From positions 1-31,143 of IMG/VR virus record IMGVR_UViG_3300031949_000132: DNA of 31,143 nt; one strand, given 5' to 3'. The stretch comes from a virus. Lineage: Duplodnaviria > Caudoviricetes. The position numbers and the translations under genes were made by a program. Positions 1-21,641 of this stretch are shown piece by piece. Each line of letters opens with the position of its first letter. The stretch's first letter is position 1. Under the pieces are notes generated by a model that searched no databases, was not told the origin of the DNA, and saw only the letters and a list, made by a program, of their open reading frames with translations.

Positions 1-438
1 CAGAGCATTCTGGCCTACGGCGTCTGCCGGCCAAATGTACAGGTAATTGAGACCCTCTGTCCCCCACAATTGGGGTGTGGAAGGCGCCCCCGGAGTTGCG
101 GTGGTATGAATCTGCCACTTTGGTATCCCAGCGTCCATGTCGTTGATCGCGCAGAAGTCCAGAGGTTTCGTATTGAAAGCAACACGAAGCGGCATGAGGA
201 TGCGCGGCCTATTGTTCGAGTCTAAAGTTCCATTCAGGGTAGTGAGGTCATAAAAGACCCTACCGGCGCTGGTCGCGGCCACCATGCGAGCTTTCCAGTA
301 CAGGCTTCCGACCTGCCAGACCCGAATCGCCTCGTTGATATTTTCGCGGAGTTCTACGGCACCGTAGAAGGCGGAGTTTTGAAGCCTTCCGAGAAGAAGC
401 GTGACGAGCGTGCCAAGAGAGACCTGCTGGAAGGGCAT
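1..438 (-). CDS. Head-tail adaptor / tail tubular protein-like (paralogue 2), truncated by the window edge
   Basis: Not in the ORF track. ATG at 438 abuts the TAG of 439..702 and the frame is open to base 1: MPFQQVSLGTLVTLLLGRLQNSAFYGAVELRENINEAIRVW...YDL...DMDAGIPKWQ...PQLW...LYIWPAD. The 'INEA...W', 'YDL', 'xDxxxPxW' and 'IWP' pattern resembles podovirus adaptor proteins. No signal peptide. Confidence 0.65.
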   Translation of the reverse strand, partial: MPFQQVSLGTLVTLLLGRLQNSAFYGAVELRENINEAIRVWQVGSLYWKARMVAATSAGRVFYDLTTLNGTLDSNNRPRILMPLRVAFNTKPLDFCAINDMDAGIPKWQIHTTATPGAPSTPQLWGTEGLNYLYIWPADAVGQNAL

Positions 439-702
439 CTAATTTGTGTTCCCTTTACGCTGAGGGTTGCCCTTGAGCTTTGCCGTGTCGCGACCCAGCT
501 TCTTGAGCTTATCCTTGGCAACGTCGCAGGGGATGGCCTTGCGGTTGCCCCGCTTTGACACCTGATAACACTTCTCCATGCCATCGGGCCGGACGTAGAC
601 GAACACCACGTTATCGTCAGCGTCGGGCTTCGACCGCTCAATCTTTTGTGCCGATGCCATAGCCGCGACTAAGAACATAAGTGTCAGCACTGCTATCCTC
701 AT
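439..702 (-). CDS. Small exported basic protein (87 aa) with Sec signal peptide and one Cys pair
   Basis: SD GAGGT upstream; MRIAVLTLMFLVAAMASA|Q has n-, h- and AxA c-regions; two Cys; K/R-rich tail. Confidence 0.8.
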   Translation of the reverse strand: MRIAVLTLMFLVAAMASAQKIERSKPDADDNVVFVYVRPDGMEKCYQVSKRGNRKAIPCDVAKDKLKKLGRDTAKLKGNPQRKGNTN

Positions 703-711
703 AACCTCACC

Positions 712-3012
712 TCATTGGTCCTTCTGCATCGGGCCAGTCGCCCACCAATTTGTACCGTCGAACCAGAAGGGTTGAAGATTACATCTATTAGCAACTACAC
801 CTATAGTGTCCGCACCCTTGAAAGCGGCATTGAAAGCGAAGGTGAATGGGCCTCCAGCAGCAGGCTGACAGACCATCCATGTTGCCCTCGCGCCGGGAAA
901 TTGCCCAGCGATTGTTCCCATCACGGCGTTGATGTTTAGGGTCAATTTCTGCACGACTCCTCGAGTGATTGCAAAGTTAGGGGTGGCCCCAGGAGTGGTC
1001 CCTAAATCATAGAGGAGCGACCCTGGATTCTGCACCAGATGGATGCCAAGCATTCCCTCTGGCCCTGAGTCCCCTGGCGGGCCTGTGACTGGAGCAGTCA
1101 GAAAAGTAGCTGAGTCGTATGGCAGGTCAGCATAGCCGCCGGACCCTCTACTGAACTGAACGCCGAACGTCGAGTCTGTAACGCTGTAGTTCCCACCCGA
1201 CCAGTTCGCGCCACTGACTTTTCCGCTGTTGATGTTAATGGCCTTCGCGTTGGCTTGGCTCTGACCGTCATAATCGAAGGTCTTAAGCATCAAGGTGCCG
1301 TCCTCGATGTAGACGTTAGAGCGTTCTGAGTATAAGGGCTGGCGAAAGGTTGCGTCCCCACCCTGCAAGCGGATGCACTCTCCGACACCCTTGTTGTCGA
1401 TGGCATTCCAGTAGCAGGACACCGAGGCGAAGTTTAGCGGTTCTTCCTTATTTCCGTCATCGCAGAAGTCCGTGACAAAGCCTCTCGGCATGATAATGAA
1501 GCCGTAACCGCCTGTGAGCGCTCCGGCTGCCGTGCGATTGAAGCTCACGAGGTCAAGCCCCGCATTGTCAACGCTGTAATAGGGGTCGAGGAAGATTCTC
1601 CCATCCGGGCCGATCATGATGTTCGCTTGGTTGTCTTTGAAGATGATGCCGCGCAGCGTCACGAAGGAGCTGGAGACGATGAGGCCATACGCGCCGCCTT
1701 GGATTTGCACGCCTTGGAGCGTGAGGTAAGCTCCATCGGCTGCGAGCACCACTGGGTTACCGGTATTGAGGACATAATTCTCTGACGCCGCCGTGTTACC
1801 AACAATGTAGACCTGCGAGCAGGGCGTGGTGATTTGGCATTCGGTGTAGTCGAGGCTGCCCCCCAGGAACGTCCGGTGCTCTAGCGCAATGCCGGCAGCC
1901 GATGTATACGTTCCTGCCGCAAGGTAGATGAAATACTTGCCGTCCACGACGTTCGGAACTTTGGCGTCGATGGCCTTCTGAACCGTCGCGTAAGGATTGC
2001 CAATAGTGCCGTCCCCAGTTATGTCGCTCCCGGTTGTTGCGACGTAAGTGTTCACAACTTTGGTGGGGTCACAGATCAAAGAAAGGTTCCCGGTGGCGTT
2101 TATCGTGACGTCCACACTGTTATTCCCAGGATTGTCGGCAAAGTTCATCGTAATGTTCGGACCTTCAATGAAGTTTATCTCGTGCTCGCAGCCGATCTCG
2201 ACTCCGTTGTCTTGAACGCTCGTACAAGTCGAAATGGTCAGGTTGGCGCGCGTCGCTGCTGGCTCGTCTGAGGCGGTAAGCGTTACCCCTGTCCCCTCGA
2301 TAAAATTGAAGATTGGTTCCGTCCCAACAAATGTCCCGTTCTTCTGCATGGTCTCGCCAGCGAACGGAGTCCCCCCGCTGCCGCACAGTAGGTCCGCATT
2401 TGGACCGATCGGATCGCAAAGGAGATAATCTGCTCGCGAGTATGGCGTCGCGATGTCAGAAAGGGAAAATCGTACGTCGTACCGGCCGGCGACCGCGTAA
2501 AATCGCCAGTAAGAATCTGTCGAGGCTACGAATGGGTTCGAGAGCACCGTCGGCGTTGGCGTGTTGTTGTCAGCAAAGATGCGTGGCAGGAACGCCGCTT
2601 GCCCGCCAGTCGAGGAGGCATCGACACCCGCCTGAGCCCACGAAAGGCTTGTTGTCCCTGGCGCCGACGAAACTGTAAAGGTTCCGTTGAACGTAGTATC
2701 GGTCACTCCCGTAACCGTGACGCTCGAGTTTAGACCATAGGTCGGATAGGTCGCCGTCAAAGTCGCCGTGACTGTCCCCGAGGACCGCGTGATCGACGTG
2801 ATCCCCGCGCTCGTCAAGCCGGAAAGATACACCGTCACGGTACAACTCTTGAAGGACCGCATCCAGCTCGTAGTCGTCGCCGGGAGGCCGCCAACCTGAA
2901 CGCTAAATCCTCCCTCTTCGCATGACCCGAAGGCTCTCTCCATCGCGTGTGCAGGACTGCACAAGAAGAAGGCTATTAGAAAAACTGTTAGCTTTCCTAT
3001 TAGACTTTTCAT
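712..3012 (-). CDS. Tailspike-like protein (766 aa): signal peptide, virion-attachment-type N-domain, two NFIEG repeats, DUF1565-like motif, beta-helix, C-terminal fibre-tip-like domain
   Basis: Start moved from 3087 to ATG 3012 (ATGA overlap with the upstream stop): MKSLIGKLTVFLIAFFLCSPAHA|M. N-domain 'IFADN...NPFVA...FYAVAGRYDVRFS'; 'YVATTGSDITGDGTIGNPYATVQKAID...IYLAAGTY' is the usual entry to pectin-lyase-like beta-helices. Confidence 0.75.
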   Translation of the reverse strand: MKSLIGKLTVFLIAFFLCSPAHAMERAFGSCEEGGFSVQVGGLPATTTSWMRSFKSCTVTVYLSGLTSAGITSITRSSGTVTATLTATYPTYGLNSSVTVTGVTDTTFNGTFTVSSAPGTTSLSWAQAGVDASSTGGQAAFLPRIFADNNTPTPTVLSNPFVASTDSYWRFYAVAGRYDVRFSLSDIATPYSRADYLLCDPIGPNADLLCGSGGTPFAGETMQKNGTFVGTEPIFNFIEGTGVTLTASDEPAATRANLTISTCTSVQDNGVEIGCEHEINFIEGPNITMNFADNPGNNSVDVTINATGNLSLICDPTKVVNTYVATTGSDITGDGTIGNPYATVQKAIDAKVPNVVDGKYFIYLAAGTYTSAAGIALEHRTFLGGSLDYTECQITTPCSQVYIVGNTAASENYVLNTGNPVVLAADGAYLTLQGVQIQGGAYGLIVSSSFVTLRGIIFKDNQANIMIGPDGRIFLDPYYSVDNAGLDLVSFNRTAAGALTGGYGFIIMPRGFVTDFCDDGNKEEPLNFASVSCYWNAIDNKGVGECIRLQGGDATFRQPLYSERSNVYIEDGTLMLKTFDYDGQSQANAKAININSGKVSGANWSGGNYSVTDSTFGVQFSRGSGGYADLPYDSATFLTAPVTGPPGDSGPEGMLGIHLVQNPGSLLYDLGTTPGATPNFAITRGVVQKLTLNINAVMGTIAGQFPGARATWMVCQPAAGGPFTFAFNAAFKGADTIGVVANRCNLQPFWFDGTNWWATGPMQKDQ
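2949..2964 (+). promoter_or_regulatory. Quasi-palindromic motif copy 1, GTGCAGGACTGCACAA
   Basis: One of seven GTGCAG-N3/4-TGCACAA sites; lies in the signal-peptide codons LCSPAH. Confidence 0.5.
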
Positions 3013-3764
3013 CGGCACCCAACCCCCATAAGAGCGATCGACTGAGCACAACTGGACGCAGGTTCCGGCTTCAACGCCATGAGCCATGCCCCCCAGCCAA
3101 TCGGCACGGCAGTATCAAAGTCCACCGACACGGTCCCCGTGGCGCCTGCCGTCACCCGCTCAAACTCCGAATTACAGTTCATCGCGTCCGCTCCAGTTCC
3201 GGTTTCTTGGTAATGCTCGGTATAGGCTGCGGGGTCGGTGCCAGTTGCTATACATCCCGCGTTATTATTGTCCTCTCCGGAGAGCGCAATCACGATAAGG
3301 GAATTGTCCGTGAGGCTTGAGATGGTGGCCAGCGATGCGGGGTCAGCCGTACCCGTAGTGGCCGTGCCGATGACTTCCCACGGAGTCTCCGTGGTGATCG
3401 CCCCACGATAGACCGTACAAACTCCGTAGGCATCCCCCGTCGTCCCGCTGAAATCCACCACAGGGTCGGTCTCCGACGCGGAGGCCGCACGCTTCCACCA
3501 AGCCCAATAACGTGCGGTCGTTCCCCTATCCACCGGACTGCCAGTGACAACTGTCCACCCAGTTACGGTCGCCGTTTCGTCCACGTCACGGTTCCACGCT
3601 TGGAGAAGAAAGATGTCATTGGTAAGGTGTGCCCCGCAATTCACCGCAAGGTCAACATGCGGAGTAGCGTCAGCCGCAATCACACTGATGTTGACAAATG
3701 TGGGCACAGCAGCCTGCGCCAGACTACAAATCAATAATGCTAGAAACAGCCTAATAAATCGCAT
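3009..3764 (-). CDS. Exported beta-rich protein (251 aa), putative virion appendage
   Basis: MRFIRLFLALLICSLAQA|A signal peptide; 'AWWKRAASASE', 'VYRG' and 'W..ALKP' patterns typical of Ala/Thr-rich phage fibre-associated beta-sandwich domains; C-terminal SCAQSIALMGVGCR. Confidence 0.75.
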   Translation of the reverse strand: MRFIRLFLALLICSLAQAAVPTFVNISVIAADATPHVDLAVNCGAHLTNDIFLLQAWNRDVDETATVTGWTVVTGSPVDRGTTARYWAWWKRAASASETDPVVDFSGTTGDAYGVCTVYRGAITTETPWEVIGTATTGTADPASLATISSLTDNSLIVIALSGEDNNNAGCIATGTDPAAYTEHYQETGTGADAMNCNSEFERVTAGATGTVSVDFDTAVPIGWGAWLMALKPEPASSCAQSIALMGVGCR

Positions 3765-5412
3765 AACTTATTGCCCCGGAAAGCTGTGTAGCGGCCGAAG
3801 TTACGATGCAAACTGAATCCCCCGCAGTCTCAGTCCGATTGATCGCCCCCAGGCCCGAGCCTTGAGTGATCCCACCATTGTCAGCGAAATTGTATCCGGA
3901 TGCCGCGGTCGTCCCGCCTGTAATTCCGGCTGTCGAGGTCCCACAGGTCGCTCCAGTCCCGGAGATCAGCGCCACATTGTTCGCCGCTGCCGTCACCAGG
4001 CTGATCCCGCAGATGTAGACGTGTCGCCCTGAGACTCCAGTGATGGCGAGCGTGGTTGTAGTGGTCGCAATGTTCACAGAAAAGAACGAGTCGCAGACCG
4101 GGATGCCAGTCAAAAAACCGCCCGTCGCTCCGCTGGCCAGCCCGCCAATGAAATCCGCGCGCGCCGGCGGCGCCGCACCAGTCGCTCCGCTGGTGTCTTG
4201 GCGCACATTGAGGTTAGCCGCGGTCGCCTGCGTTGCGGCCGTGGTCGATCCAGAGTCAATCACAGCATGAAGATTTGTCCCCGTCGCCTGTTCTGCCGTG
4301 ACCGTTCCACTGACCGGCTGTGTGGCCTGCCAAAAGGTGCCCGAAACGGGTTGCGTCGCCTGCCAGAAGGTCCCCGACACTGGTTGAGTCGCTTGCCAGA
4401 AAGTTCCTGTTACAGCTACCGAATCCGTCCCACTCGAAAGCGCGCGGATTGAACGCGCATCGTAAAGTGTCCCACCCGTCGCGAGGTTTACGACTGGGGA
4501 CCCGTTGCGCAATGACCAGAGACGCACGATGTCGGTGTCTGCGTCTACATCGGCCGGCGCCGCCGCGGAAGCGAACCCTCCGACCGCTACCGGGTTCGTG
4601 GTTCCCCCGGCCGCATCATGCGCCGTAAACCCGCTGACCAGGGGGTCTGCCCAAGCCGCGGCTGTCGCGCTCGACGCGATTGGAATTTGACCAAGGACAG
4701 GAGTTCCAGTAACCGCCACACTCTGAATCTTCGTGGCGTCAATCACTCCGCTGCCAGTCGCCCCTAGACTCGCGCCGGTGCCGACGACCATTGCCGCTGT
4801 GATATTTGTCCCAGAGGTTACGGCATCAAATGAAGGGGCCCCACCACTTAGTGGAGTGCTGAACACCCCTGTCCCGTCGTAGTATTTGCTCGCATCGCTG
4901 GGCAACGTCCCTTGCAGTGCCCCCATCGTCCCGACGCCCAAAAGCATCAGATCGTATGTCCCAGCAATGGCGTTCGTCTCGAGAAGTCGTCCAATAAGCC
5001 TTCCAGTTGCGGGTCGCGTCGGACCTAAATCTGTACACTTACCCGCAACGCTCGAGCTGATCCCCACCCAATTGGCAGAGGTTACCGCTCCGTCGAACTG
5101 GCACTGGACGATTCCTCCCGTAACAATCGTAGCCTCTCCAGAGGTCCCACAACCGGAGATGCAGATACCCACAGAAGCCTGTGATCCTGCGGCTACTTTT
5201 TGGGCTTTGGCAGGGTCTATTGCAAGGAGCGTCGTGAGGGTATATTGCTCCGTTCCAGTGACGGTATCGTTTGCATATTTTATGGTTGCCGTAGCACCAG
5301 ACCACTGCGGCAAGCGCCCGGTCTTCGAATCATACTGGGCGATGCCCACCGTCGTAAGAATGCCAAAACAAAGCCATAAGAATGGCAAAACAATCGAGAG
5401 GCGCTTTTTCAT
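3751..5412 (-). CDS. Exported fibre-like protein (553 aa) with capsid-cement-like N-domain and GTFWQATQPVS repeats
   Basis: Start moved to ATG 5412 (ATGA overlap): MKKRLSIVLPFLWLCFGILTTVGIA|Q. Ala/Gly/Thr-rich, three tandem 11-aa repeats, Cys clusters in the N- and C-domains. Confidence 0.75.
   Translation of the reverse strand: MKKRLSIVLPFLWLCFGILTTVGIAQYDSKTGRLPQWSGATATIKYANDTVTGTEQYTLTTLLAIDPAKAQKVAAGSQASVGICISGCGTSGEATIVTGGIVQCQFDGAVTSANWVGISSSVAGKCTDLGPTRPATGRLIGRLLETNAIAGTYDLMLLGVGTMGALQGTLPSDASKYYDGTGVFSTPLSGGAPSFDAVTSGTNITAAMVVGTGASLGATGSGVIDATKIQSVAVTGTPVLGQIPIASSATAAAWADPLVSGFTAHDAAGGTTNPVAVGGFASAAAPADVDADTDIVRLWSLRNGSPVVNLATGGTLYDARSIRALSSGTDSVAVTGTFWQATQPVSGTFWQATQPVSGTFWQATQPVSGTVTAEQATGTNLHAVIDSGSTTAATQATAANLNVRQDTSGATGAAPPARADFIGGLASGATGGFLTGIPVCDSFFSVNIATTTTTLAITGVSGRHVYICGISLVTAAANNVALISGTGATCGTSTAGITGGTTAASGYNFADNGGITQGSGLGAINRTETAGDSVCIVTSAATQLSGAISYAIY
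4309..4407 (-). repeat. Three tandem 33-bp units each encoding GTFWQATQPVS
   Basis: Units are identical in protein but differ at synonymous codon positions. Confidence 0.95.
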
Positions 5413-7895
5413 ATTCCCATCCCAACACACGAAAATGTGTATGTCTTAGTGTCTACCGGCGTCCCTAGCCAGGTCAATGTCAGTACGGTCGCCGACTCGC
5501 TTTGCGTGATATCGGAAATCGCATCACTCCCGGCCGACTGTTTACACACAAAAACGGGAACTGTCGTCCAGGTCCCATCCGTAAAGGTCAAATCTAAAGT
5601 CGGGTTCAGCGCCGGCGCGGTTCCGGCGGTTACTGTAACCGAGAATGCTTGGTCTGCCCCACGGATAGCGCTCAACGCGGCGCCGGCTCCCCACCCTGTC
5701 GCTACAAAATCTCCTGAGACCAGCGCTGTCCCGGAAGAGTGGAATCGGGGGGCCTGTGTCTTTCCCCCAAAGTCGACGAGCTGAGCCCCGGTCTTAATCG
5801 CTGCAGTGCCGATTGTCGCGGCCGACAGGTCTATCCCATAGGTGTATCCCCCGCCGGCATCGCTCAGATAGAGTCCGTTGGTTACCGCCTGAGTCGCACT
5901 TTCGTTGTAACCCCAGAAGGCGTGAAAGTTCGTGACATTCGGGAGACTCCCTCCGGTAAACCCGGGGGCCATGTAAGAGCGGATTCCGACAAATGCCGTA
6001 CCAGGAGCTGCAACGACCGATCCGCTCGCGCGCGCCGACCCATCGAGACCTACGGAAGTAATGGCTGTCCCCCCAAGTGTGTCATCGACATAGGTCCGGA
6101 AGTGTCCGCCGCGGATCGTGAGATTGACGCCACTCGAACGCGATCGCGTTACCGCCTCGATCCCAGTCACAGTCGCTTGATCGTCGATCGCTGCCGTGCG
6201 GTTGTTTTCGATGAAGAGCCCCACTCCCTCATTCCCGACTGTCGGCCCCGTGGTCGTTGCCTTCGTGAGGGTCAATCCGTCCCAAGCATTTGCCCCCGAT
6301 TTCTTCAACGTCATCGCATTGCTGAACTGGAACTCATTCGTCAGGGTCGCACCATTGAAATTGAGGCCGTTGGTATACCCTCCGCCTGCGTCACTCACAA
6401 AGATGGCGTTTGTCACAGCATTTGTCGCGTGCTCGTTGTAGACCCAGAGGCCGTGGAAGTTGTTGATGTTGCCAAGCGAGCCCCCGGTAAAGTCTGGCGC
6501 CATCCAGATCCTAGCCCCCACGAAAGCTGTGCCAGCCTCAGCGACGGTACCCGTGCCGGCGCGCGCCGAAGCTTCCAAACCGACTGAGGTCCTCGCTGTT
6601 GCAGTGAAAGTCGGGTCGATGTAGGTCCGGAAGAGCCCCCCGCGGAAGGTTCCCGCCTCGTCTGCTCCCCGACTGCGAGCTACACCCTCAATCCCGTTGA
6701 TTGTGAACACTCCGTTCGTCGTGGCTGTTCGGTTGGCCGCAACGCTCAAGGCCGTAAACTCGCTTACGGGGTCAACTGTTACCACCGTCGAGAAAGCGGC
6801 TCCTGTGTCGTCGGCAAGGTTGTTTATTTCATCAAGCCTCGGCTGTGGGTTATTTACCCAATTTGACCCGTTCCAGCGCAGCGTATCTTTGAGTGCTATC
6901 CCAGCCAAAGTCACCCCGAGGATCGTCGTCCCCGTCCCGCTCTTATTGGCGAAGTCTGTCAGATCCGACGAGGCCCAAACCTCTTGACCTTGGGCCGCAT
7001 TGAGACGAGCTGCCGCAGTCAGGCCAGCATAACCGCTGATGGCATTCTTGTTTGAGGAGATCTCGCAGGTAGGACAACTAATAGCCGGCGTCACCCCGCC
7101 ACTGGAAACGATTGGCGACGTGCCGGTTACGCTTGCCACTCCTCCCATTGAGGCCGGGGCGCTTCCATCGTATGAGAAGCACGGCAGCCCTGTCGTGGGG
7201 TCGAATCCGAACAATCCAACATTCGCCTCGGACGTCCCGCACGCCTCGCCGGTAATCTCGATCGGATGGTCGGTTGAGAACAGGCCAGTCACGTACAGCG
7301 ACCCGTCCATCAGGGTGTCACCGAAGAATGTCTTGTTGCCCCCGAACACCTGCGCGCCCGTCGTCACCACGCCCCGCGCCGTCGCGCTCGCGTCGGGGAA
7401 GTTGTATGTGTGGGTGTCTACATCGGATTGAATGTTTACATCTGTCCCTGATGAACCCACAGTAAATAGCTGCTCGAATGCTCCTAGACCGTTGAGTGAG
7501 AATATCCCCGTCCCGCTTATCGTCTGGTCGACAAGCTTAATGTCAGCCAGGGTAAAAGGTGTTGGAATCCCTCCGCCTGACAGACGGACATCATACCGGC
7601 CGTCGTCGGCGTAGAAAAACCAAAATCCTGTCGTCGTATCAGCTACAAAGGGATTAGATTTTACACTACCGAGGTTGTCTGAGTAGATTTGTGCCGGGGT
7701 GAGAGTCCCGGTGAGGTAAACAGTTGTCGTGCATCCTGGGTATGACCCTTGAGCCTTCGGGCTTCCTACTCCTCCACCTCCAAAAATGATCGAGACCCCA
7801 CCCTGCGAACAGTAGCCCCATACCCTCTCGCGAGCGTGTGCAGGAATGCACAACGCCAGAAGTAACGGCAGAATCGCTGCAAGTCGAAGCCTCAT
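5409..7895 (-). CDS. Tail fibre/spike-like protein (828 aa) with signal peptide, virion-attachment-type N-domain and a 131-aa internal duplication
   Basis: MRLRLAAILPLLLALCIPAHA|R; N-domain 'AQIYSDN...NPFVAD...FFYADDGRYDVRLSG' paralogous to that of 712..3012; fibre motifs 'VASVTGTSPIVSSGG.TPAIS' and 'LRWNGSNWVN'. Confidence 0.8.
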   Translation of the reverse strand: MRLRLAAILPLLLALCIPAHARERVWGYCSQGGVSIIFGGGGVGSPKAQGSYPGCTTTVYLTGTLTPAQIYSDNLGSVKSNPFVADTTTGFWFFYADDGRYDVRLSGGGIPTPFTLADIKLVDQTISGTGIFSLNGLGAFEQLFTVGSSGTDVNIQSDVDTHTYNFPDASATARGVVTTGAQVFGGNKTFFGDTLMDGSLYVTGLFSTDHPIEITGEACGTSEANVGLFGFDPTTGLPCFSYDGSAPASMGGVASVTGTSPIVSSGGVTPAISCPTCEISSNKNAISGYAGLTAAARLNAAQGQEVWASSDLTDFANKSGTGTTILGVTLAGIALKDTLRWNGSNWVNNPQPRLDEINNLADDTGAAFSTVVTVDPVSEFTALSVAANRTATTNGVFTINGIEGVARSRGADEAGTFRGGLFRTYIDPTFTATARTSVGLEASARAGTGTVAEAGTAFVGARIWMAPDFTGGSLGNINNFHGLWVYNEHATNAVTNAIFVSDAGGGYTNGLNFNGATLTNEFQFSNAMTLKKSGANAWDGLTLTKATTTGPTVGNEGVGLFIENNRTAAIDDQATVTGIEAVTRSRSSGVNLTIRGGHFRTYVDDTLGGTAITSVGLDGSARASGSVVAAPGTAFVGIRSYMAPGFTGGSLPNVTNFHAFWGYNESATQAVTNGLYLSDAGGGYTYGIDLSAATIGTAAIKTGAQLVDFGGKTQAPRFHSSGTALVSGDFVATGWGAGAALSAIRGADQAFSVTVTAGTAPALNPTLDLTFTDGTWTTVPVFVCKQSAGSDAISDITQSESATVLTLTWLGTPVDTKTYTFSCVGMGI
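5811..6734 (-). repeat. Diverged intragenic duplication, 393 bp x2 (6342..6734 and 5811..6203)
   Basis: Both copies read NRTA...GIE.V.RSR...RGG.FRTY.D...TSVGL..SARA...GTAFVG.R..MAP.FTGGSL.N..NFH..W.YNE.AT.AVTN....SDAGGGYT.G. Confidence 0.9.
7838..7853 (+). promoter_or_regulatory. Quasi-palindromic motif copy 2, GTGCAGGAATGCACAA
   Basis: One of seven sites; lies in the signal-peptide codons LCIPAH. Confidence 0.5.
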
Positions 7896-7943
7896 TGCAT
7901 TCCATGTCTGTCTACGGCTTTGGCAGGGCGCCCATTGCTCACC

Positions 7944-8282
7944 TCAAGGCTTTTGCTCAGGAGTACCGCCATTTGTCTTGCGCAAGATGTTCTCTCCTGT
8001 GCGCTTCGCGCGGTCGAGAAATGACTCGATCATCACGTCCGCCGAGAGTCCAACCGAGAAAGCTACGAATCGGTTCGTGACCCATCCTTCACCTAGAACC
8101 ACATAGAAAATGTAGCAGGTCACAAGACCGCGAATGACGAGCCGACCCCAATTGCTCTTCAGATATCCAGAGAAACTTCGTTCCTGGGTCTCGGAGATCA
8201 CAAACTGAATACGGTCTCCCCAGCGCGCGAGCACACCCATAGCAAAACCAAGCCAGAGTTGCCAGATCATACTTCCTACCAT
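7944..8282 (-). CDS. Small multi-pass membrane protein, holin-like (112 aa)
   Basis: GAGGAGG SD 5-6 nt before ATG 8282 (preferred to GTG 8306); about three hydrophobic segments and a charged C-terminal tail. Confidence 0.6.
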   Translation of the reverse strand: MVGSMIWQLWLGFAMGVLARWGDRIQFVISETQERSFSGYLKSNWGRLVIRGLVTCYIFYVVLGEGWVTNRFVAFSVGLSADVMIESFLDRAKRTGENILRKTNGGTPEQKP

Positions 8283-8302
8283 TGGACCCTCCTCAATAGA
8301 AT

Positions 8303-8692
8303 TCACTTCTCCAAATCTTCAGGTGTTGAGTCGTACTTCGGCGGATAAATATCTACCCTGGCACCGGTACTATGACGATGCAGAGGAAAACCCCGAAGGT
8401 CCTGACGCAGCATGATATCGTGAGTCTCCACACGCAGGAGCCTTCTATTCGTGGCATTCTGCTGCCCCACCAGTTGCTCCACCTGCTTGTTCAGCACTTC
8501 CACCTGGGCGTGCAACCGGTCCATAGTAAGAAAACCAGCCACGACAAGTAGAATCAGCCCGATCAGCGTCCACGCATTCACAGAAAGGTCGAGACGCACC
8601 CGGCCCCCTCCGGAAGGAGGAGGAGAACCGAGCCTCTCCATGCCCTCGATGAGGGGCTTGGGAACTGCGGCGTATTCCAAGGGGTCACTCAT
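8303..8692 (-). CDS. Single-pass membrane protein with coiled coil (129 aa)
   Basis: TM segment AWTLIGLILLVVAGFLT followed by heptads LHAQVEVLNKQVEQLVGQQ. Confidence 0.7.
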   Translation of the reverse strand: MSDPLEYAAVPKPLIEGMERLGSPPPSGGGRVRLDLSVNAWTLIGLILLVVAGFLTMDRLHAQVEVLNKQVEQLVGQQNATNRRLLRVETHDIMLRQDLRGFPLHRHSTGARVDIYPPKYDSTPEDLEK

Positions 8693-8694
8693 GA

Positions 8695-10077
8695 TCAGGG
8701 TCCAATCGGCCCGGTCGTGCTGATGACGATGTTCTTCCAGTAGCGATACTCATCTACATTAAGATAGTTGAAGCGGTCTACTTGGGTCCCCACAGCAATG
8801 CGGTTGATTCCCGTCGTGCAGGTGCCGCGAAGGTTGACGTTGAGGCTTTGCAGGTCAGTCAACTCTGTGCCGTTGACATAGACGCGCAGCTCGCCGTCGC
8901 TCAAGCCGGGAGTGTTGGGCTTTACATAGACTTCTACTGAGTACCAAGTGTCAAAAGCCCACGTTGTCGCGCTGGTCTTACTTGTGGGTGCGGGGCCGCC
9001 CGAGCATTCTGGGGCATCGTAGCCTATCCCAAAGTGTGCCCAATCGGACGCCGGTCTGCCGTTGACGACGACGGCCCAGTGGTAATCGTGCGTTGTACCG
9101 TAAGGGTCTTTCAAGTAGAAGAGTTTGCGCTGGATTTCATTGCTGCCCCCGGCGTTTTGGTGGAAGCGCACGTAGCCGCGCAGGTAGAAGGCTGGAAGCC
9201 CGTTCGGGTAGCCATTCGTGGAATTGAAGTTCTTCTGCACATAGCGGTTTGCCTCGCCGTGGGCAGAGCCGCAAGCGGGATTGGTTGAGTCTCCACACAC
9301 GACGTAATGAAACTGCGCACAATTCCCCCCATCTGGGCAGGCAACTATAGTGTCATCCGTGGTCGTCCACACCTGCGTCCACGCCGCAAAGCTGCTCAAG
9401 GCATCGGAGAAGATCGGTGCGCCAGGAGACGCCGCAATCGTGACCGCAAACGCCTTCGAGTAAGTCTGCGGCGTAGCGCTGGAATCGGTTACGGTGAACG
9501 TCACGCTATAAGTGCCGCTGGCTGTCGGCGTGCCCGCCACAACGCCTGTCGCTCCGGTCAGTGCGATGCCGGGCGGAAGTCCGCAGGATGGCGCAACACA
9601 CGTCGCTGGAATCGACCACGTGTAAGGAGCTGTTCCGCCCGTGGCTTGCAGCGTCGTGGTGTAGGCAACACTGACTTGACCGGAAGGCAAACTGCCCGTT
9701 GAGATCGACGCGGCCGGCGTGGGCGCCGGGGCCGCGCCAGTGATGGTGATGAAAAGCCCCTGATCATCGGTTTTCGGCGGACCTTCGGAGTCCGTAACGC
9801 GCACCGTGAAAGCGAAAGTATTGTTGACCGTCGGCGTGCCGGAGATGATGCCGGTGGCTGCGGCAATGCTTAGGCCGTCGGGAAGCGCCCCACTCGAGAT
9901 CGACCACGAGTAAGGCTTGGTTCCAAACTTCGCCTTGACCGTCGCGGAGTAGGCCACGCCGTTCTGACCGGCCGCGAGCTTGGTCGTGAATATCGCCGGG
10001 GGCTTCACCGCGAGGGCTGATCCACAGATGACGCAGATTAGAAAGATGAGAGCGAAACCACGAAGAATGCTTTTCAT
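8695..10077 (-). CDS. Exported protein (460 aa): two putative Ig (He_PIG-like) domains plus a polysaccharide-lyase/ConA-like jelly-roll
   Basis: Start moved to ATG 10077: MKSILRGFALIFLICVICGSALA|V. Two copies of 'Y...x.A.GGT.PY.WSI..G.LP.G.....TG.I.GTPT..GT..FTV.VTDS'; C-domain 'WYSVEVYVKPNTPGLSDGELRVYVNG'. Confidence 0.8.
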   Translation of the reverse strand: MKSILRGFALIFLICVICGSALAVKPPAIFTTKLAAGQNGVAYSATVKAKFGTKPYSWSISSGALPDGLSIAAATGIISGTPTVNNTFAFTVRVTDSEGPPKTDDQGLFITITGAAPAPTPAASISTGSLPSGQVSVAYTTTLQATGGTAPYTWSIPATCVAPSCGLPPGIALTGATGVVAGTPTASGTYSVTFTVTDSSATPQTYSKAFAVTIAASPGAPIFSDALSSFAAWTQVWTTTDDTIVACPDGGNCAQFHYVVCGDSTNPACGSAHGEANRYVQKNFNSTNGYPNGLPAFYLRGYVRFHQNAGGSNEIQRKLFYLKDPYGTTHDYHWAVVVNGRPASDWAHFGIGYDAPECSGGPAPTSKTSATTWAFDTWYSVEVYVKPNTPGLSDGELRVYVNGTELTDLQSLNVNLRGTCTTGINRIAVGTQVDRFNYLNVDEYRYWKNIVISTTGPIGP

Positions 10078-10108
10078 GCTGACTCCCGGCTCCTGACTCC
10101 TGCTTTTC

Positions 10109-11005
10109 TCACATCGCCACAAACACGTTGGTCTTTTTCCGGCCCCCACCGCCAAAGAAATAGCGCCTCGTCGGGGACTGCGGCACCAGCATCCCATAAG
10201 GCTCGGCAAACCACCAGGAAATCAAATCGTCTGGCCACTGCTCTTTAGCTACAGCGAAGAAGTAGAACTCTTGCAAGTCGCCGCTGACTCCAAACGTGCT
10301 ATTCAATCTGACTTCCCCAGAAGCCGCCCTGGAGATTGCCGTCGTCTGGTTCGCAAGTTTCTCACCATTCTTCCAGATAGAAGACCCCTTGCCCCCAGCG
10401 GCAAATGCCCACATCTCAGGAACGGCTGTCCAGCTCAAGCCTGCAAGGGTTAAGCGATTGGGAGCTGTATTTCCACCAAAGTCCCAATACACGGTTCCGT
10501 CGTTAAAGGGGACAAGCCCCTGAAATCCCCCGCCAGCAATAGGCTCTCCGAAGGCTGCGGAGACCCTAGTTGTAGTATCTGTTTTACGCCTGATGAGCAA
10601 CACCGTCCCGCCTTTTGTTACTTCGTCGAGGACGCCAAGGGCCTGCATGAAGTCGCCCGTATTATTGATGTTGATGCCCGTCCCCGGCGTGTTCCAGACC
10701 CATGAAGGAGTGCCCGCGAGAGTGCCGAATGGCCCGTTAATGACGCAATTTGCCCTGTTTGCAGCGTTATGTGAGACAATATTCGTAGCTGCAACGATCC
10801 CGCCACCCTCATTAAAAGGAATCACGGCCACCATGCCCATTGCGAGAGGATGGCCCCAGTTCACGCAGAGCCCACCTACGGGCTTCTCGACCTGCCTTTT
10901 GGGTCGCGTAATAATGGACGCGGAGAGCCGTACCACGGGGTCGGCGGCGATTGCCGCTGCTACCGATGCCTGCGCCGCGAGTTTGATGAAGTTTCTGCGT
11001 TTCAT
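10109..11005 (-). CDS. LamG/ConA-like lectin protein with Tat (twin-arginine) signal peptide (298 aa)
   Basis: MKRRNFIKLAAQASVAAAIAA matches the RRxFLK Tat consensus; 'NWGHPLAMGMVAVIPFNEGGG', 'SIWKNG' and 'EPYGML' resemble phage LamG-like proteins; TAATG coupling with the upstream gene. Confidence 0.75.
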   Translation of the reverse strand: MKRRNFIKLAAQASVAAAIAADPVVRLSASIITRPKRQVEKPVGGLCVNWGHPLAMGMVAVIPFNEGGGIVAATNIVSHNAANRANCVINGPFGTLAGTPSWVWNTPGTGININNTGDFMQALGVLDEVTKGGTVLLIRRKTDTTTRVSAAFGEPIAGGGFQGLVPFNDGTVYWDFGGNTAPNRLTLAGLSWTAVPEMWAFAAGGKGSSIWKNGEKLANQTTAISRAASGEVRLNSTFGVSGDLQEFYFFAVAKEQWPDDLISWWFAEPYGMLVPQSPTRRYFFGGGGRKKTNVFVAM

Positions 11006-11544
11006 TATGGACTCTGTGCGAGTGCTCCTTGATAGAGTTTTAGGTGACTACCCTCAGTCCCGTCGAGTGTTCCACCGCTCTGGTTCTCGATGATGATTCC
11101 CCACTTCTGAGGCAGCACGCCGCCGAAAGCCGCTGCAACAGAGAAAGGCTCACTCTTGTAGGTCGTTGCGTTGGCGACGACGTTGAGCCTTCCAATCAGC
11201 TTGACGTTCGCGGGACTCGTCAGAGTGATTGCCGCATCGGTTCCTGCTCCCTCAGCGTATGTCGTCCCACCATCGGCTGTGCCGTAGGCGTACACGTTGA
11301 CGTAGCCGGTGGTCGAAGTCGCTGCGGCTCCCGACTTGATTTGTACCTGCACCAAAACGTCGAGGTACAGAGTCGAGGTGTTGTCCACTGCAAGGCAGGA
11401 GCGCGCGGCCGTTGTCACGAGACTCGCAAGCGTGCAGGTGATAGTCGCGGGCGACCCGTACTTTGATTTGATGTCGGCGGTGTGGACCGGCGACGCCATG
11501 CACAGCGCCAAGACAACGAGAAGTCCGCAGATTCTTTTTCGCAT
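11005..11544 (-). CDS. Exported beta-sandwich protein (179 aa), probable partner of the LamG-like protein
   Basis: AGGAG 6 nt before ATG 11544 (the ATG at 11550 directly abuts the SD); MRKRICGLLVVLALCMASPVHTA signal; 'DGGTTY', 'FSVAAAFGGVLPQKWGIIIENQSG'. Confidence 0.75.
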   Translation of the reverse strand: MRKRICGLLVVLALCMASPVHTADIKSKYGSPATITCTLASLVTTAARSCLAVDNTSTLYLDVLVQVQIKSGAAATSTTGYVNVYAYGTADGGTTYAEGAGTDAAITLTSPANVKLIGRLNVVANATTYKSEPFSVAAAFGGVLPQKWGIIIENQSGGTLDGTEGSHLKLYQGALAQSP

Positions 11545-11553
11545 ATTCATCTC

Positions 11554-13353
11554 CTACCTTGTTCCCGCCAGAGTAATTGCAATGTCGGCAAGGGTCGCGT
11601 CGGCGCTTCCCGGCCCGACTACGGTGAGCACGTCACCAGCCGAGAACAGCGCCCCAACGGTCGAGGCGAAGGTGCAAGTGGTCCCCGCAATGGCGAATGT
11701 GCAGGTGCCAAACGCTGCGCCATTCTTGTTGGTGCTCACGATAGTTTCCGCTGTAGCTGCTATACCTGCACTCGCGTAGCTTCCCGCCAGCGCAATCGGG
11801 AATGCCACTTGCCGGGTGAACACCACGCGGCTCAAGACTTCGGAAGCTCCTGGCACACCTGAGAAGAATGTCACCACGTCGTAAGGATTGACGACGGGCT
11901 GCGCCGAGCCGGTCTGCGTCTGCAAAAAGATATTGTCGAGGTAGAAGCCAATCGAGCCTCCGCCGCCGCTCACCTGGATCTTGAGCGTAGTAACAAGGTT
12001 GCCGCCTGTTCCCCACAGCGATGTTGGAATGACAATCTGCTGGTAAGTAGCAGTCTGCGAGCTGGAAAACCCGAATAGACCATCGTCGAGCGTAACTGCC
12101 GTGCCCACTGGCGTTGAGCCATTCAGCCATGAAAGCAGCAGTGATTTGGGGTTTGGCCAAGCTGCCTTGCTGCGGATATAGAGTGTCTTAGTGACGTAAG
12201 CTGACAAATTCTCCGTGCCCGCGGCAGGCTTGACCAGCGTGACGTTGTTGCCAGCTACGGCAGTGGTCGCCTCAATGTCCTTTGTTCCGGCATAGGGATT
12301 CGAAGTCGAGGCGCAGTTGAAGTTGGCCGACGCCGTACACGTCCACTCGGTGTTCTCCAAGTAGAGATTCGTCGTACTGAAATTGCCGGGTGTTGTAGCG
12401 AGAGCGGCAATATAGATTAGACCCCCGCTCAGGTCAACTTGGGTCGTGGGGTCAATGCTGGGAGCGGCAGGAGGCGTCGCAGCCGTGCCCGTAATCTTGA
12501 CAGCAGCCCCGGTATTGTCTACGACAATCCTATCAATGCGGGGGTCTACGGCATCTGCAGCGTCGAGAGTGATTGCAGTCAGCGGCGAAGAGTAGGACGT
12601 GCCGCCAATCAAGTAGGTCGCCGGCGACACGGAGAAATCCAAGTCGCCGGTCCAGACGACTCCACCGCCGGTCAGCAGCCCGGTCCCAATAGATTGAACG
12701 CTCCCCGTAGCAGGCGGGGCAATGACCGTAGGTGTGCCGCCATCAACCGAATACCAGAAAAGTCCGGTCGTCGGGTCGCACCCGAACAGTCCCACGTTCG
12801 CTTCGGCAATGGTAGGGTCCACGCAGGTCGTCTCGATGGGATTGTCGGTCGAGAAGAAATCCGTCACGTACAGGTCGCCATTCATCAACGTGTCGCCGGT
12901 GAAGGTTTTGTTTCCGGCGAGGACTTGCGGACCTGTCGTGATGAGTCCGCGCGCCGTGGCGCTGGCGTCAGGAATGCAAAAGAAATGAGTATCAACACTC
13001 GGCTCGATGTTGAAATCAATCCCGGTTGTGCAAGTCTGAAAATACTGAGTGGTGGTACTCAGAGTTGACTCTGATGTTCCAAGGTTTATGATGCCGGTGC
13101 CAGCGATCCCCGGAGTCGTCCCCCCTCCGGTTCGTGTCTGCCCAACTCTTGGAGGCGCCCAAGGCCAGGGCCACGCTTTTTTCATAGCCGACGCGGTTGT
13201 CATTAGATGGAAAGGAGGAAGCTTTGCCCAATTTGTGGCAATTAGCTTTGTTTCTGGTTGAAGTGAAGTTTTCCTGAGGGTCTGCGCGTGCACCGACCCT
13301 ATTGAGAATAGCGTAGCAAGCGCGAGTAGGAACGAACGAACTATGAGGTTCAT
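11554..13353 (-). CDS. Exported fibre-like protein (599 aa) with a carbohydrate-binding-like domain and a fibre-type C-terminal domain
   Basis: GGGAGG SD before ATG 13353: MNLIVRSFLLALATLFSIGSVHA|Q. 'DPRIDRIVVD...GTAA.PPAAP' fibre motif; 'YQQIVIP...FYLDNI.L' CBM-like; C-terminal 'PYDV..F.GVP...KNG...F.AGDVLTV..P...DATLADIAITLAG'. Confidence 0.75.
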   Translation of the reverse strand: MNLIVRSFLLALATLFSIGSVHAQTLRKTSLQPETKLIATNWAKLPPFHLMTTASAMKKAWPWPWAPPRVGQTRTGGGTTPGIAGTGIINLGTSESTLSTTTQYFQTCTTGIDFNIEPSVDTHFFCIPDASATARGLITTGPQVLAGNKTFTGDTLMNGDLYVTDFFSTDNPIETTCVDPTIAEANVGLFGCDPTTGLFWYSVDGGTPTVIAPPATGSVQSIGTGLLTGGGVVWTGDLDFSVSPATYLIGGTSYSSPLTAITLDAADAVDPRIDRIVVDNTGAAVKITGTAATPPAAPSIDPTTQVDLSGGLIYIAALATTPGNFSTTNLYLENTEWTCTASANFNCASTSNPYAGTKDIEATTAVAGNNVTLVKPAAGTENLSAYVTKTLYIRSKAAWPNPKSLLLSWLNGSTPVGTAVTLDDGLFGFSSSQTATYQQIVIPTSLWGTGGNLVTTLKIQVSGGGGSIGFYLDNIFLQTQTGSAQPVVNPYDVVTFFSGVPGASEVLSRVVFTRQVAFPIALAGSYASAGIAATAETIVSTNKNGAAFGTCTFAIAGTTCTFASTVGALFSAGDVLTVVGPGSADATLADIAITLAGTR

Positions 13354-13372
13354 CACTCTAGCCTCCCGACGC

Positions 13373-13921
13373 TTACGTCTGAACGATCGAAGGGAGATAA
13401 ACATCGTTGATGGTTCCGACCACCCAATACTCTGACGAACTCCCTGGATTCGCGCCAAAGATATTCGAGTTGAAGACCTCGACTGGCTGGCCAGCGGCTA
13501 CGGTCTCGAGCCGCACCATAAGATGGAGACCGGTTCCTAGAGCGGCATCTCTTTTGGTTCCAACCCCCAGGGCGCCCGCGTCGCCTGCGCGCCTCTGAAT
13601 GTACAGCGACGCCATGTTGACGTTCAGAATGACCCGCGCGCCGGAAGCATGGGTAAACTTCAGGGCAGTGACAGTCAAGCTTCCAGCCCCGATCGAGACA
13701 ATCCTGGCATTCTCTGACTTCGTTCCGTCAGTCTCTACCACGATAATCTCGTCGTTTTTCTCCCAAGGCAGGGCATCGTCCACAACAGGGATGACTTGAG
13801 TTGGCATGGGCTGTCCAAGGCCATCGGTGGTCGGCACGAAGGCCGCGGAGAGTGTTGTGCCAAAGACCGGCTGCGCGACGTCAGTCGCGACAATGGTCAA
13901 GTATTTGAATGCTCGGTTCGT
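13373..13921 (-). CDS. Virion-region hypothetical protein without signal peptide; probable ACG start at 13921 (TTG 13900 is the alternative)
   Basis: GGAGGTGA SD precedes an in-frame ACG (6 nt after GGAGG), giving (M)NRAFKYLTIVATDVAQPVFGTTL; an in-frame TGA lies just upstream. Confidence 0.7.
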   Translation of the reverse strand, partial: TNRAFKYLTIVATDVAQPVFGTTLSAAFVPTTDGLGQPMPTQVIPVVDDALPWEKNDEIIVVETDGTKSENARIVSIGAGSLTVTALKFTHASGARVILNVNMASLYIQRRAGDAGALGVGTKRDAALGTGLHLMVRLETVAAGQPVEVFNSNIFGANPGSSSEYWVVGTINDVYLPSIVQT

Positions 13922-13934
13922 AAGTCACCTCCGA

Positions 13935-13950
13935 GTGCAGAACTGCACAA
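13935..13950 (+). promoter_or_regulatory. Quasi-palindromic motif copy 3, GTGCAGAACTGCACAA
   Basis: Intergenic, 2 nt from the SD of the downstream (13921) gene. Confidence 0.65.
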
Positions 13951-13953
13951 CGC

Positions 13954-15216
13954 TTAGTCAGCCGCAGTTGTGGTTACTCGTTCCCAATCGGTGTCGGCCC
14001 CGCCCGTGGCGACTTTCAGGTAAGCCTTGCCAGCACTGGAAAAGTAGTAAGAACCAATGGCGCCCGCTGTGCCCACTTCCGAACGGACAGCATTACGTGT
14101 GGTCTGTACCCCAACTGAGATGATCGCCCCGTTTGAAAAGCGGATCTGCCCGCCTGTTACGACGATCGTGGCCCCATTCATGTCGAGGCCCACATTCCAT
14201 CCGGTCGTATTCCCTGCGTTCGTAGGAATGAGAATCGCAGCGTCAGGAACTCCAACGTTCGACTGGTCGATGTTGCGAACTCGGATACCGTATTGCGTGG
14301 TCGCCTTGGCACCCTCATTCTTAATCGCCACATCGAGCCCACCATGCTCTGTGGCGTTCGTACCGAAGTTCTCAGTTTGTACTTCAAGACCTCGAACGAC
14401 CGGAGAGGTTGACCCGGACTTCGAAGATGCAGAGGCTAATCCACCAATTAACTGGCCTAAGGTCCCACCACTGCGGTTGTTCACAACGCTGTTCAGGCCG
14501 CGCAAAATGAAGTTTGAATCGTTGGCCCCGTAATTATTGTAGGTCCACTTGGCGATCGCGTCGTTTGAATCCCCGGTCACCGCTGCTGTGCTCGGTCGGT
14601 TGACTTGAATAGTGAAGGCATAGGTTTTGAAGGCCGCGCCGTTAGCCGACATTAGACCAGAGCTTGAACCCCCGCCATCACTCAATCCGAATAGGTAGGT
14701 TTGCGAACCGCTGGGCCGCGCCGAGGGCAAGAAGTTAAGAGCGATATCGCTCTGTGTCTTGATCAAAGCGCCGTTTGGAAACAACAGGCCCGACGTTCCC
14801 ACGGTCGGGGTTCCTCCCGTGATGGCTGGAGCTGCGGCCGAGAGCACAGTGGAAAGGCTCACAGTCGCCGAGGTAATTGTCGTCAGGGCAGTAAAGCACG
14901 TCCCGCCCGCCGAGCAGATCGTAGCCTGCCAGCGAGATCCCCCGCCAAGTATGTCCGTCCGGCCGAGTGTGACGCTTGAAAACGCCCCGCCCGACGTCAA
15001 ACTCCCACTTTTGGGTGTAGTGCTCGCGCCAGTTCCGAAATTGACTCCCTGCGGTCCAGGTACGAACACGAAGGCGTAGGTCCCGTTTGCGTAGACTTGG
15101 CTGCTCGGTCCGGTAATCGTACCGGACACGGTCGCATTTTGTCCAAACGCAACCGAGGTCGCAAAGACCACGGTGAGTAATACCATCGTCAGATAGGCTG
15201 AAAGTTTTCCGAACAT
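13954..15216 (-). CDS. Exported fibre-like protein (420 aa)
   Basis: AGGAGG SD before ATG 15216: MFGKLSAYLTMVLLTVVFATSVAFG|Q; N-domain 'TVSGTIT...NGTY.F...W..TIC'; C-terminal 'GSYYFSSAGKAYLKV...W' fibre-type motif. Confidence 0.78.
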   Translation of the reverse strand: MFGKLSAYLTMVLLTVVFATSVAFGQNATVSGTITGPSSQVYANGTYAFVFVPGPQGVNFGTGASTTPKSGSLTSGGAFSSVTLGRTDILGGGSRWQATICSAGGTCFTALTTITSATVSLSTVLSAAAPAITGGTPTVGTSGLLFPNGALIKTQSDIALNFLPSARPSGSQTYLFGLSDGGGSSSGLMSANGAAFKTYAFTIQVNRPSTAAVTGDSNDAIAKWTYNNYGANDSNFILRGLNSVVNNRSGGTLGQLIGGLASASSKSGSTSPVVRGLEVQTENFGTNATEHGGLDVAIKNEGAKATTQYGIRVRNIDQSNVGVPDAAILIPTNAGNTTGWNVGLDMNGATIVVTGGQIRFSNGAIISVGVQTTRNAVRSEVGTAGAIGSYYFSSAGKAYLKVATGGADTDWERVTTTAAD

Positions 15217-17317: not shown

Positions 17318-17355
17318 AACAAAAATGCCCTGGCCGGTTTGCGGCCAGCCAGGGC
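17318..17355 (-). terminator. Rho-independent terminator after the capsid and decoration genes
   Basis: GCCCTGGCTGG-CCGCAAA-CCGGCCAGGGC followed by ATTTTTGTT. Confidence 0.75.
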
Positions 17356-20598: not shown

Positions 20599-20606
20599 GA
20601 CCGTCC

Positions 20607-20624
20607 TTTGTGCATTTACTGCAC
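20607..20624 (-). promoter_or_regulatory. Quasi-palindromic motif copy 5, GTGCAGTAAATGCACAAA
   Basis: Exact 18-bp repeat; runs into the SD of the 20598 gene. Confidence 0.75.
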
Positions 20625-20770: not shown

Positions 20771-20773
20771 GGA

Positions 20774-21193: not shown

Positions 21194-21196
21194 ACA

Positions 21197-21401: not shown

Positions 21402-21641
21402 TCATCTTCCGCCGACTGTTACCCGTACACCGGTGTGACGAAGGACTCTGACCGAAGCATTCACCTTGACGTCTACGATCTGCCCGCCGGCAATCTGGAT
21501 ATTCACCTGCCCGTCAGCTCGAGTCCCGTTCCCGATCATTGCAAAGAGTGCATCGTAAACATCGGGGTGAACCTCAAGCGACGATGCGTCCCCTTGGCTC
21601 ATCAGGAGAAAGTACGGCCTTCCGTCCGAAGTTTGTTTCAC
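21402..21641 (-). CDS. Small hypothetical protein (79 aa), weak DUF2292/YezD-like beta-hairpin
   Basis: GTGA overlap with the portal stop; 'GQVNIQIAGGQIVDVKV'. Confidence 0.6.
   Translation of the reverse strand: MKQTSDGRPYFLLMSQGDASSLEVHPDVYDALFAMIGNGTRADGQVNIQIAGGQIVDVKVNASVRVLRHTGVRVTVGGR

Follow-up and report, generated by a model that had tools for sequence, protein, structure and literature searches.

The window analyzed here (positions 1 to 31,143 of IMG/VR record IMGVR_UViG_3300031949_000132) is a 31-kb piece of a Caudoviricetes phage, the proteins of which are assigned by a protein collection to a 93,190-bp contig. All of its genes are encoded on the minus strand. The terminase, which contains an intein, comes first and is followed by portal, scaffold, capsid, decoration, adaptor 1, a LAGLIDADG gene, a 13-gene block, and adaptor 2. 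Scaffold, decoration, adaptor 1, and nozzle are labels based on position, weak matches, or initial reading, without a strong family match. The subject of this report is the block of 13 genes that separates adaptor 2 (1..438) from the LAGLIDADG gene (15251..16093), ten of which encode proteins that begin with a predicted export leader, either of the general secretory (Sec) type or of the twin-arginine translocation (Tat) type. Particles of tailed phages are taken to be built entirely in the cytoplasm. We consider it probable that the ten appendage proteins are instead exported, folded with disulfides in the periplasm, and docked onto particles at lysis. The genes, named for their start positions, are as follows, with mature cysteine counts that use predicted cleavage sites.

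439..702, minus strand: g702, 87 amino acids (aa), Sec-type leader, 2 mature cysteines, no Pfam, PHROG, or NCBIfam match
712..3012, minus strand: g3012, tailspike-like, 766 aa, Sec-type leader, 14 mature cysteines
3009..3764, minus strand: g3764, 251 aa, Sec-type leader, 6 mature cysteines, no family
3751..5412, minus strand: g5412, 553 aa, Sec-type leader, fiber-like repeats (VSGTFWQATQP, three times), 8 mature cysteines
5409..7895, minus strand: g7895, tailspike/fiber, 828 aa, Sec-type leader, predicted head-binding domain, variable body, 8 mature cysteines
7521..7832, minus strand: predicted head-binding (particle-anchor) domain of g7895, residues 22 to 125, with the C29/C55 pair
7944..8282, minus strand: g8282, 112 aa, leaderless, hydrophobic stretches, holin-like to judge from its position
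8303..8692, minus strand: g8692, 129 aa, one predicted transmembrane (TM) helix, weak Rz-like spanin match (phrog_7686, E = 5e-5)
8695..10077, minus strand: g10077, 460 aa, Sec-type leader, two putative immunoglobulin (Ig) domains and a PL14-like domain, 8 mature cysteines
10109..11005, minus strand: g11005, 298 aa, twin-arginine leader (KRRNFIK), 2 cysteines, presumably lectin/LamG-like
11005..11544, minus strand: g11544, 179 aa, single jelly roll, Sec-type leader, C37/C50 pair (2 mature cysteines)
11554..13353, minus strand: g13353, fiber-like, 599 aa, Sec-type leader, tail-fiber-type C-terminal domain, 8 mature cysteines
13373..13921, minus strand: g13921, 182 aa, leaderless, no cysteines, kept inside the block in relatives, candidate cytoplasmic docking base
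13954..15216, minus strand: g15216, 420 aa, Sec-type leader, mature protein with a conserved N-terminal domain that contains a cysteine pair (2 mature cysteines), variable C terminus

Leaders were called with our own tripartite heuristic, not with SignalP, as a positive n-region, an uncharged h-region, and an AxA-like site. A leader was present at all ten starts that the preliminary description had proposed for signal peptides (702, 3012, 3764, 5412, 7895, 10077, 11005, 11544, 13353, and 15216). Nine of the ten have the Sec/signal peptidase I pattern by this heuristic (positive n-region, hydrophobic h-region, small residues at −3 and −1), and g11005 has a putative Tat-type leader, in which KRRNFIK stands against an S/T-R-R-x-F-L-K-like motif and which scores just below the cutoff for the Tat signal family TIGR01409 (16.5 versus 16.7 bits). 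The heuristic flagged 10 of the 13 module genes versus one of the 19 other genes in the window (Fisher p = 4e-5); it flagged none of 349 internal start codons and 0 to 14 of 1000 composition shuffles for each of the nine Sec-type proteins, and it does have false positives, such as the acetyltransferase gp34 of a Tunturi phage.

Pairing with the Shine-Dalgarno (SD) sequence reached −6.9 kcal/mol or better at 7 of the 10 starts. Overlaps of −1 at 11005 and −14 at 3764 couple these two starts to the upstream gene, and the start at 7895, which has a weak SD (−3.3), is backed by homologues. True starts downstream of the h-regions are unlikely, because every alternative start in codons 9 to 36 pairs at −3.5 or weaker. 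Wrong start codons as the source of the leaders were rejected on the basis of SD pairing, gene overlaps, and these weak downstream alternatives.

As had been proposed, the capsid, portal, decoration, and both adaptor proteins lack leaders, and we found the same for the scaffold. Of the two further membrane proteins that had been suggested within the block, g8692 held up with its one predicted TM helix, and g8282 fell under the TM threshold. A valid lipobox or a mature TM segment was searched for in the ten leader-bearing proteins and found in none, and the processed proteins would therefore be soluble, without a hold on the membrane. In g3012, one loose lipobox match (FGSC) is located beyond the AHA site, and its cysteine is the conserved one of the anchor.

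Selection for export seems to act on the leaders: their sequence drifts while the n/h/c form and AxA-like ends stay. Among 51 homologues of the g7895 N-terminal (anchor) domain, self included, 45 passed the heuristic and a further one carries its leader behind a miscalled start; of the rest, two appear truncated and three are truly without a leader. Identity to the window is 32% in the leaders versus 55% in the mature domain, and the shared domain starts about 20 to 25 residues in. The C29/C55 pair tracks the leader: both cysteines are present in 41 of the 46 leader-bearing homologues and neither is present in the three truly leaderless ones. We also assembled an independent set from the best 80 of 273 viral matches and from 9 genome loci, 89 loci in all, which yielded 96 anchor open reading frames (ORFs) and 81 distinct domains. 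In this set, 41 of the 48 domains with a leader have both cysteines, versus 0 of the 33 without one, and 2 of those 33 do have leaders on closer look and were relabeled for the tree. The leader label changes six times on the anchor tree (FastTree, cysteines masked), with at least three changes forced by strong branches.

The same association was seen for g11544, for which the cysteine pair occurs in 10 of 15 leader-bearing versus 1 of 105 other proteins among the best 120 of 907 matches. Its tree (quick IQ-TREE) has seven leader-label changes, at least three of them forced. The leader/cysteine counts for the two families are not phylogenetically independent; the trees show repeated switching. 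This family is mostly viral and is leaderless in most other phages. Missed upstream leaders were rejected for the leaderless homologues in L005, L006, L007, and L009, where the previous gene ends 26 or fewer bases before the start, and the match in L008 is located at the end of a longer ORF.

An even-cysteine bias is an established sign of disulfides in exported proteins. The mature cysteine count is even in all ten leader-bearing proteins of the window, and cysteine content is 1.42% in these ten versus 0.52% in seven leaderless virion proteins. Among ORFs of relatives that contain cysteines, the count is even in 87 of 107 with leaders versus 244 of 575 without, the latter set including spurious frames. 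From these sequence patterns, export with disulfide folding is well supported.

The virion end of the proposal, as set out in the preliminary description, is supported in part, by two anchor domains and by the tailspike slot that they occupy. The g7895 and g3012 proteins are predicted to carry a head-binding domain of the P22/Pam1 type, an assignment that draws on sequence, fold, architecture, and gene slot taken together. All four phmmer matches of the g7895 anchor to the PDB at E ≤ 10 were tailspike head-binding domains or tail spikes (those of Pam1 and Pan3; best E = 0.022). The AlphaFold2 model of the anchor (predicted local distance difference test score, 86) was compared with known structures, as had been recommended, and ranked tailspike head-binding domains first. 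Foldseek placed Pam1 (7eeq) and Pan3 (9vyg) at the top, in ranks 1 to 3, followed by XM1 neck and P22 entries, and VIA-align gave Z scores of 8.0 for Pam1 (7eeq; rank 1, root mean square deviation [rmsd] 4.7, 88 residues aligned), 7.3 for P22 gp9N, and 6.9 for Sf6. The predicted fold is thus shared with cyanophage Pam1 (7eeq), Pan3 (9vyg), P22 gp9N (8eb7 and 2vky), and Sf6 gp14N (7sg7), at 22 to 29% identity to Pam1 and Pan3 in structural alignments.

In g3012 the domain is split by an insert of about 70 aa and is paralogous to the g7895 anchor (residues 18 to 73 and 144 to 200); a phage tail segment follows at residues 313 to 370 (phrog_4577 tail, E = 2e-8). Across homologues, the anchor is joined to PF12708, PF13229, PF02839, or PF00150 bodies (beta-helix, carbohydrate-binding module, and cellulase) and is kept at about 55% identity ahead of these unrelated bodies. 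Window proteins and podovirus tailspikes thus have in common a conserved anchor, a variable body, and a slot among adaptor and nozzle-like genes; the window adds a cleavable-type leader and a cysteine pair. The picture of a tailspike as a cytoplasmic protein without a signal peptide does not describe g7895 and g3012, both of which have leaders.

Relatives place the anchor genes where tailspike genes normally lie. Anchors between adaptor and nozzle-like genes are leader-bearing in L021 and L025 and leaderless in L022, L023, and L093, with capsid, portal, adaptor, and nozzle-like genes shared, and L026 and L049 have leader-bearing anchors immediately before the adaptor. The closest relative (G001, 72% complete), with an 80% identical capsid protein, is represented by four loci that look like one phage. 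Its block holds seven leader-bearing genes, with leader sequences unlike those of the window, and is followed by two adaptors, then by a nozzle-like gene of 1142 aa and by ejection-like genes. Within 5 kb of the anchor, 59 of 463 neighboring genes have leaders at leader-bearing anchors (48 loci) versus 8 of 247 at leaderless ones (29 loci). In most relatives, one to four genes near the anchor bear leaders, so the window is an extreme case; the survey of related phages for conserved signal peptides thus confirmed the trait, in a form less module-wide than in the window. Five viral loci with a leaderless g11544 homologue gave one weak neighbor flag only. Leader type switches within the g11005 family: 6 of 10 homologues, g11005 itself counted, have a twin-arginine leader, the leader of L015 is of the Sec type, and L005 has none.

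The anchor was found at nine loci in the genome collection. Acidobacteriota bins account for four of these and Pseudomonadota for three, and there is one each in Gemmatimonadales and Saccharibacteria. Of the features that define a podovirus (terminase, portal, capsid, adaptors, and nozzle, with neither tape measure nor sheath), the window contains the terminase, portal, and capsid, and nozzle-like and ejection-like genes were seen only in G001. The phage is probably a short-tailed phage of Acidobacteriota. Tunturi 1 and 2 (PP887698 and PP885685) are the only records among 50,697 annotated phage records that matched the anchor, the portal, and the G001 nozzle-like protein; the window capsid and g11544 had no match in the same records. 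These two phages are cultured podoviruses of Acidobacteriota, with podovirus morphology by electron microscopy, according to the available text of PMC11924767. In Tunturi 1 (28 of 106 genes examined), leaders were found on the anchor protein gp12, gp13, gp14 (at a second start), gp16, and gp17, so that, as in the window, there is a leader-bearing block (gp12 to gp17), which lies between an adaptor and the endolysin. Both Tunturi phages differ from the window in being distant (portal, 26% identical), in their 63-kb size, and in other cargo proteins. The main text of PMC11924767, in the part available, mentions no signal peptides and no mass spectrometry. The leader-bearing trait is genuine and is widespread across an uncultured family that includes a cultured member.

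In the scheme that we propose, the block would be transcribed along with the late genes, and its leader-bearing products would cross the inner membrane by host Sec (nine proteins) or Tat (one protein), to be cleaved, oxidized, and held in the periplasm. Lysis functions in and beside the block would then mix cytoplasm and periplasm, and g7895 and g3012 would dock on the tail hub via their head-binding domains, as the P22 tailspike does on finished heads. The other eight proteins may attach to g7895 and g3012, to the capsid, or to a base without a leader, for which g13921 is a candidate; it may also be that some of them are just released. Docking on the particle is supported because g7895 and g3012 have the head-binding domain and their relatives occupy the normal tailspike slot, and virion attachment of these two proteins is likely. 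Docking at lysis is feasible because the P22 tailspike is the last part added and attaches to finished heads in vitro, as described in the accessible portion of bioRxiv 2021.09.20.461090; that tailspike has no signal peptide, according to the part available of bioRxiv 2026.09.13.751334.

We put forward more tentatively, at somewhat less than an even chance, a two-compartment virion across a widespread podophage family linked to Acidobacteriota. Its head and tail core would be cytoplasmic, a branched array of up to ten disulfide-bonded spikes, lectins, and lyases would pass through Sec and Tat, mature in the periplasm, and attach at lysis, and leaders would have been gained and lost repeatedly together with cysteine pairs.

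Several observations weigh against export followed by docking. Only two of the ten proteins have a recognized particle-anchor domain, and its structural match is modest: the best Foldseek E value was 1.6e-3, with none reaching 0.001, secreted pilin/CnaB/transthyretin-like domains scored Z values of 6.8 to 7.3 against the anchor, a small margin, and a PDB profile search with the full-length anchor alignment gave no match. Leaderless fiber-like genes occur in relatives, as two ORFs of 213 and 832 aa after the nozzle-like gene in G001 and as the annotated 124-aa tail fiber gp33 among the examined genes of Tunturi 1, and the exported set may thus be accessory. The trait is not always module-wide, since L025 and L049 pair a leader-bearing anchor with a leaderless g11544 homologue. 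Three of the four anchors in Acidobacteriota bins are leaderless, and the host itself, likely a member of the Acidobacteriota, is one that we infer. In addition, a leader-bearing anchor tailspike gene lies amid host-type genes on a 1.18-Mb Acidobacteriota contig (L096, 9908-12373). No virion proteomics for any family member was found in the literature.

One alternative is late export of proteins that never join the particle. Free lyases, lectins, or receptor blockers could loosen the envelope or capsule, aid release, or keep progeny off debris, and in the window, G001, and Tunturi 1 alike, lysis-type genes do lie within the block or adjoin it. The leaderless fiber-like genes of relatives also fit such a role, as does the best fold match of g11544, which counts against docking: XepA (Z = 9.7, rmsd 2.8, 108 residues aligned; tied with BcsB at 9.2) is a prophage protein that undergoes export past the cytoplasmic membrane and is absent from mature particles, according to the part of PMC6834076 available. 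However, a conserved head-binding domain would be useless to a free protein, yet it is kept ahead of unrelated bodies, and the anchor proteins share their slot with leaderless tailspikes. We regard free release of the whole set as unlikely; some of the eight proteins that lack an anchor domain may well be released in this way. Proteins of lysogenic conversion or of the host surface that derive from fiber genes and are expressed from a prophage, as the preliminary description had offered as an alternative, have precedents in Lom, a leader-bearing gene within the lambda tail region (PMC12309495, in the section available), and in the fibers of Bdellovibrio known as MAT fibers, all 21 of which have a signal peptide (21/21; PMC10769870, likewise in part). 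The apparently orphan gene of L096 would also suit this explanation.

Against lysogenic conversion, the block genes are tightly packed, several overlap, and their GC content is like that of the rest; promoter-like sites are not in excess (9 versus 7.6 expected), and there was no support for a promoter of the block's own. The ten proteins offer no lipobox or mature TM anchor, and the capsid protein had matches in only 2 of the 401 genomes that were sampled from the G002 phylum, with the seed as one of the two. The available text of PMC11924767 describes lytic cycles for the Tunturi phages and annotates an integrase or recombinase only for Tunturi 3 to 5, naming no integrase for Tunturi 1 and 2. 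Weakened by these observations, this explanation now looks improbable. We would judge it similarly improbable that the leaders do not serve export, but instead hold proteins on the membrane's inner face or are cut off by a protease of the phage, with spikes assembled in the cytoplasm and disulfides formed in air after lysis. Export in the window is itself deduced from the genes, which leaves room for such a role, but the n/h/c pattern and AxA-like ends persist despite sequence drift, the switch of g11005 homologues among Tat (window), Sec (L015), and no leader (L005) fits selection for membrane crossing, and proteins without the leader have also lost the cysteine pair.

Known systems resemble export followed by docking in part. 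Filamentous phage coat proteins pIII and pVIII are virion proteins made with Sec leaders; they are membrane anchored and assembled during extrusion, outside the Caudoviricetes and without lysis. The MAT fibers are, like the window proteins, phage-fiber-like trimers behind a signal peptide, so such folds are exportable, but they are bacterial surface adhesins rather than virion parts. PBSX XepA and SPbeta YomS share with g11544 the jelly-roll fold, and XepA is also exported and a lysis-cassette gene; XepA differs in its 13% identity, Gram-positive host, and location off the particle, and its Z score is tied with those of unrelated jelly rolls. No description of exported virion appendages in tailed phages was found in the full-text literature, including that from 2021 onward, a search outside which most subscription papers and supplements fall, and an export route for tailspikes is without a published precedent found for these phages. 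If the proposal is true, phages could use disulfide-dependent binding and sugar-cutting domains from host secretomes, and infectivity would depend on host Sec, Tat, and Dsb functions. Pipelines that take a signal peptide to mean "not a virion protein" would then miss the receptor-binding proteins of a large group of soil phages. Tunturi 1, as a cultured relative, makes the question directly testable.

The leaderless structural genes for which rows were compiled are the following.

1..438, cut by the window end, minus strand: adaptor 2, leaderless; PF24175 SU10_adaptor at E = 6e-4, below the cutoff; 61% identity to the copy in G001
16093..17103, minus strand: adaptor-1-like neck/tail protein, leaderless, 5 cysteines, homologue of Tunturi 1 gp11
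18029..19024, minus strand: major capsid protein, leaderless; phrog_9953, E = 2e-16
21638..23554, minus strand: portal, leaderless; matches in the phage collection to the Tunturi 1 and 2 portals only

Among the block proteins, g10077 matched PF05345 (Ig) at E = 5e-23 and PF21294 (PL14-like) at E = 5e-4, the latter below the cutoff. The g13353 protein matched a tail fiber family (phrog_7049, E = 2e-11), and its residues 111 to 222 are 60% identical to residues 150 to 256 of g7895; ahead of this shared segment, its N-terminal mature part (window 13100-13280) contains an unusual Trp/Pro/Lys-rich stretch. Residues 28 to 134 of g15216 share 60% identity with a 790-aa leader-bearing protein of the closest relative, and the L040 homologue of g5412 also has a leader. 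Pfam, PHROG, and NCBIfam yielded no useful family for g702, g3764, g5412, g15216, and g13921, an Atlas search gave no family for g13921, and a capsid-cement domain was looked for at the N terminus of g5412 and found no support. For g11544, a PDB profile search gave no match, and the one Atlas lead, Bbp16, applied to 21% of a single cluster. A C-terminal LLGVG-like motif was found in none of 1540 ORFs.

The start of g13921 is most likely an ACG behind a very strong SD (GGAGGT; minus strand, 13921), which possibly keeps expression low; a relative has an ATG about one codon upstream in the alignment. The one flagged gene outside the module, g30895 (30407-30895), lies upstream of the terminase genes, and G001 has a leader-bearing gene directly ahead of a small-terminase-like gene (L105, 5395-5991). 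The capsid ORF of the closest relative (L002, 9947-10999) has an in-frame, upstream signal-peptide-like extension that is probably untranslated; the window's capsid gene has a stop there. At L103 15500-16733 of G001, genes that we take to be glycosyltransferase-like and methyltransferase-like directly follow a leaderless Ser/Thr/Ala-rich fiber gene, which suggests fiber glycosylation. The L096 locus, with no capsid gene seen nearby and no capsid match in that genome, may reflect domestication, and such genes may persist without a phage nearby.

An 11-bp GC-rich hairpin with a T-run (17327-17355, minus strand) directly follows the decoration gene and likely attenuates downstream expression. A beta-domain inserted in adaptor 1 matches the N termini of the 23gd distal tail protein (E = 2e-6) and of an F2-pyocin side fiber (E = 0.02). 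The large terminase (24648-27935) contains an intein with a LAGLIDADG domain inside, and the free gene at 15251-16093 is of the LAGLIDADG/helix-turn-helix type. Small basic low-complexity ORFs, one highly Arg/Lys-rich, lie between the portal and scaffold genes (20314-21196), and G001 has similar ones.

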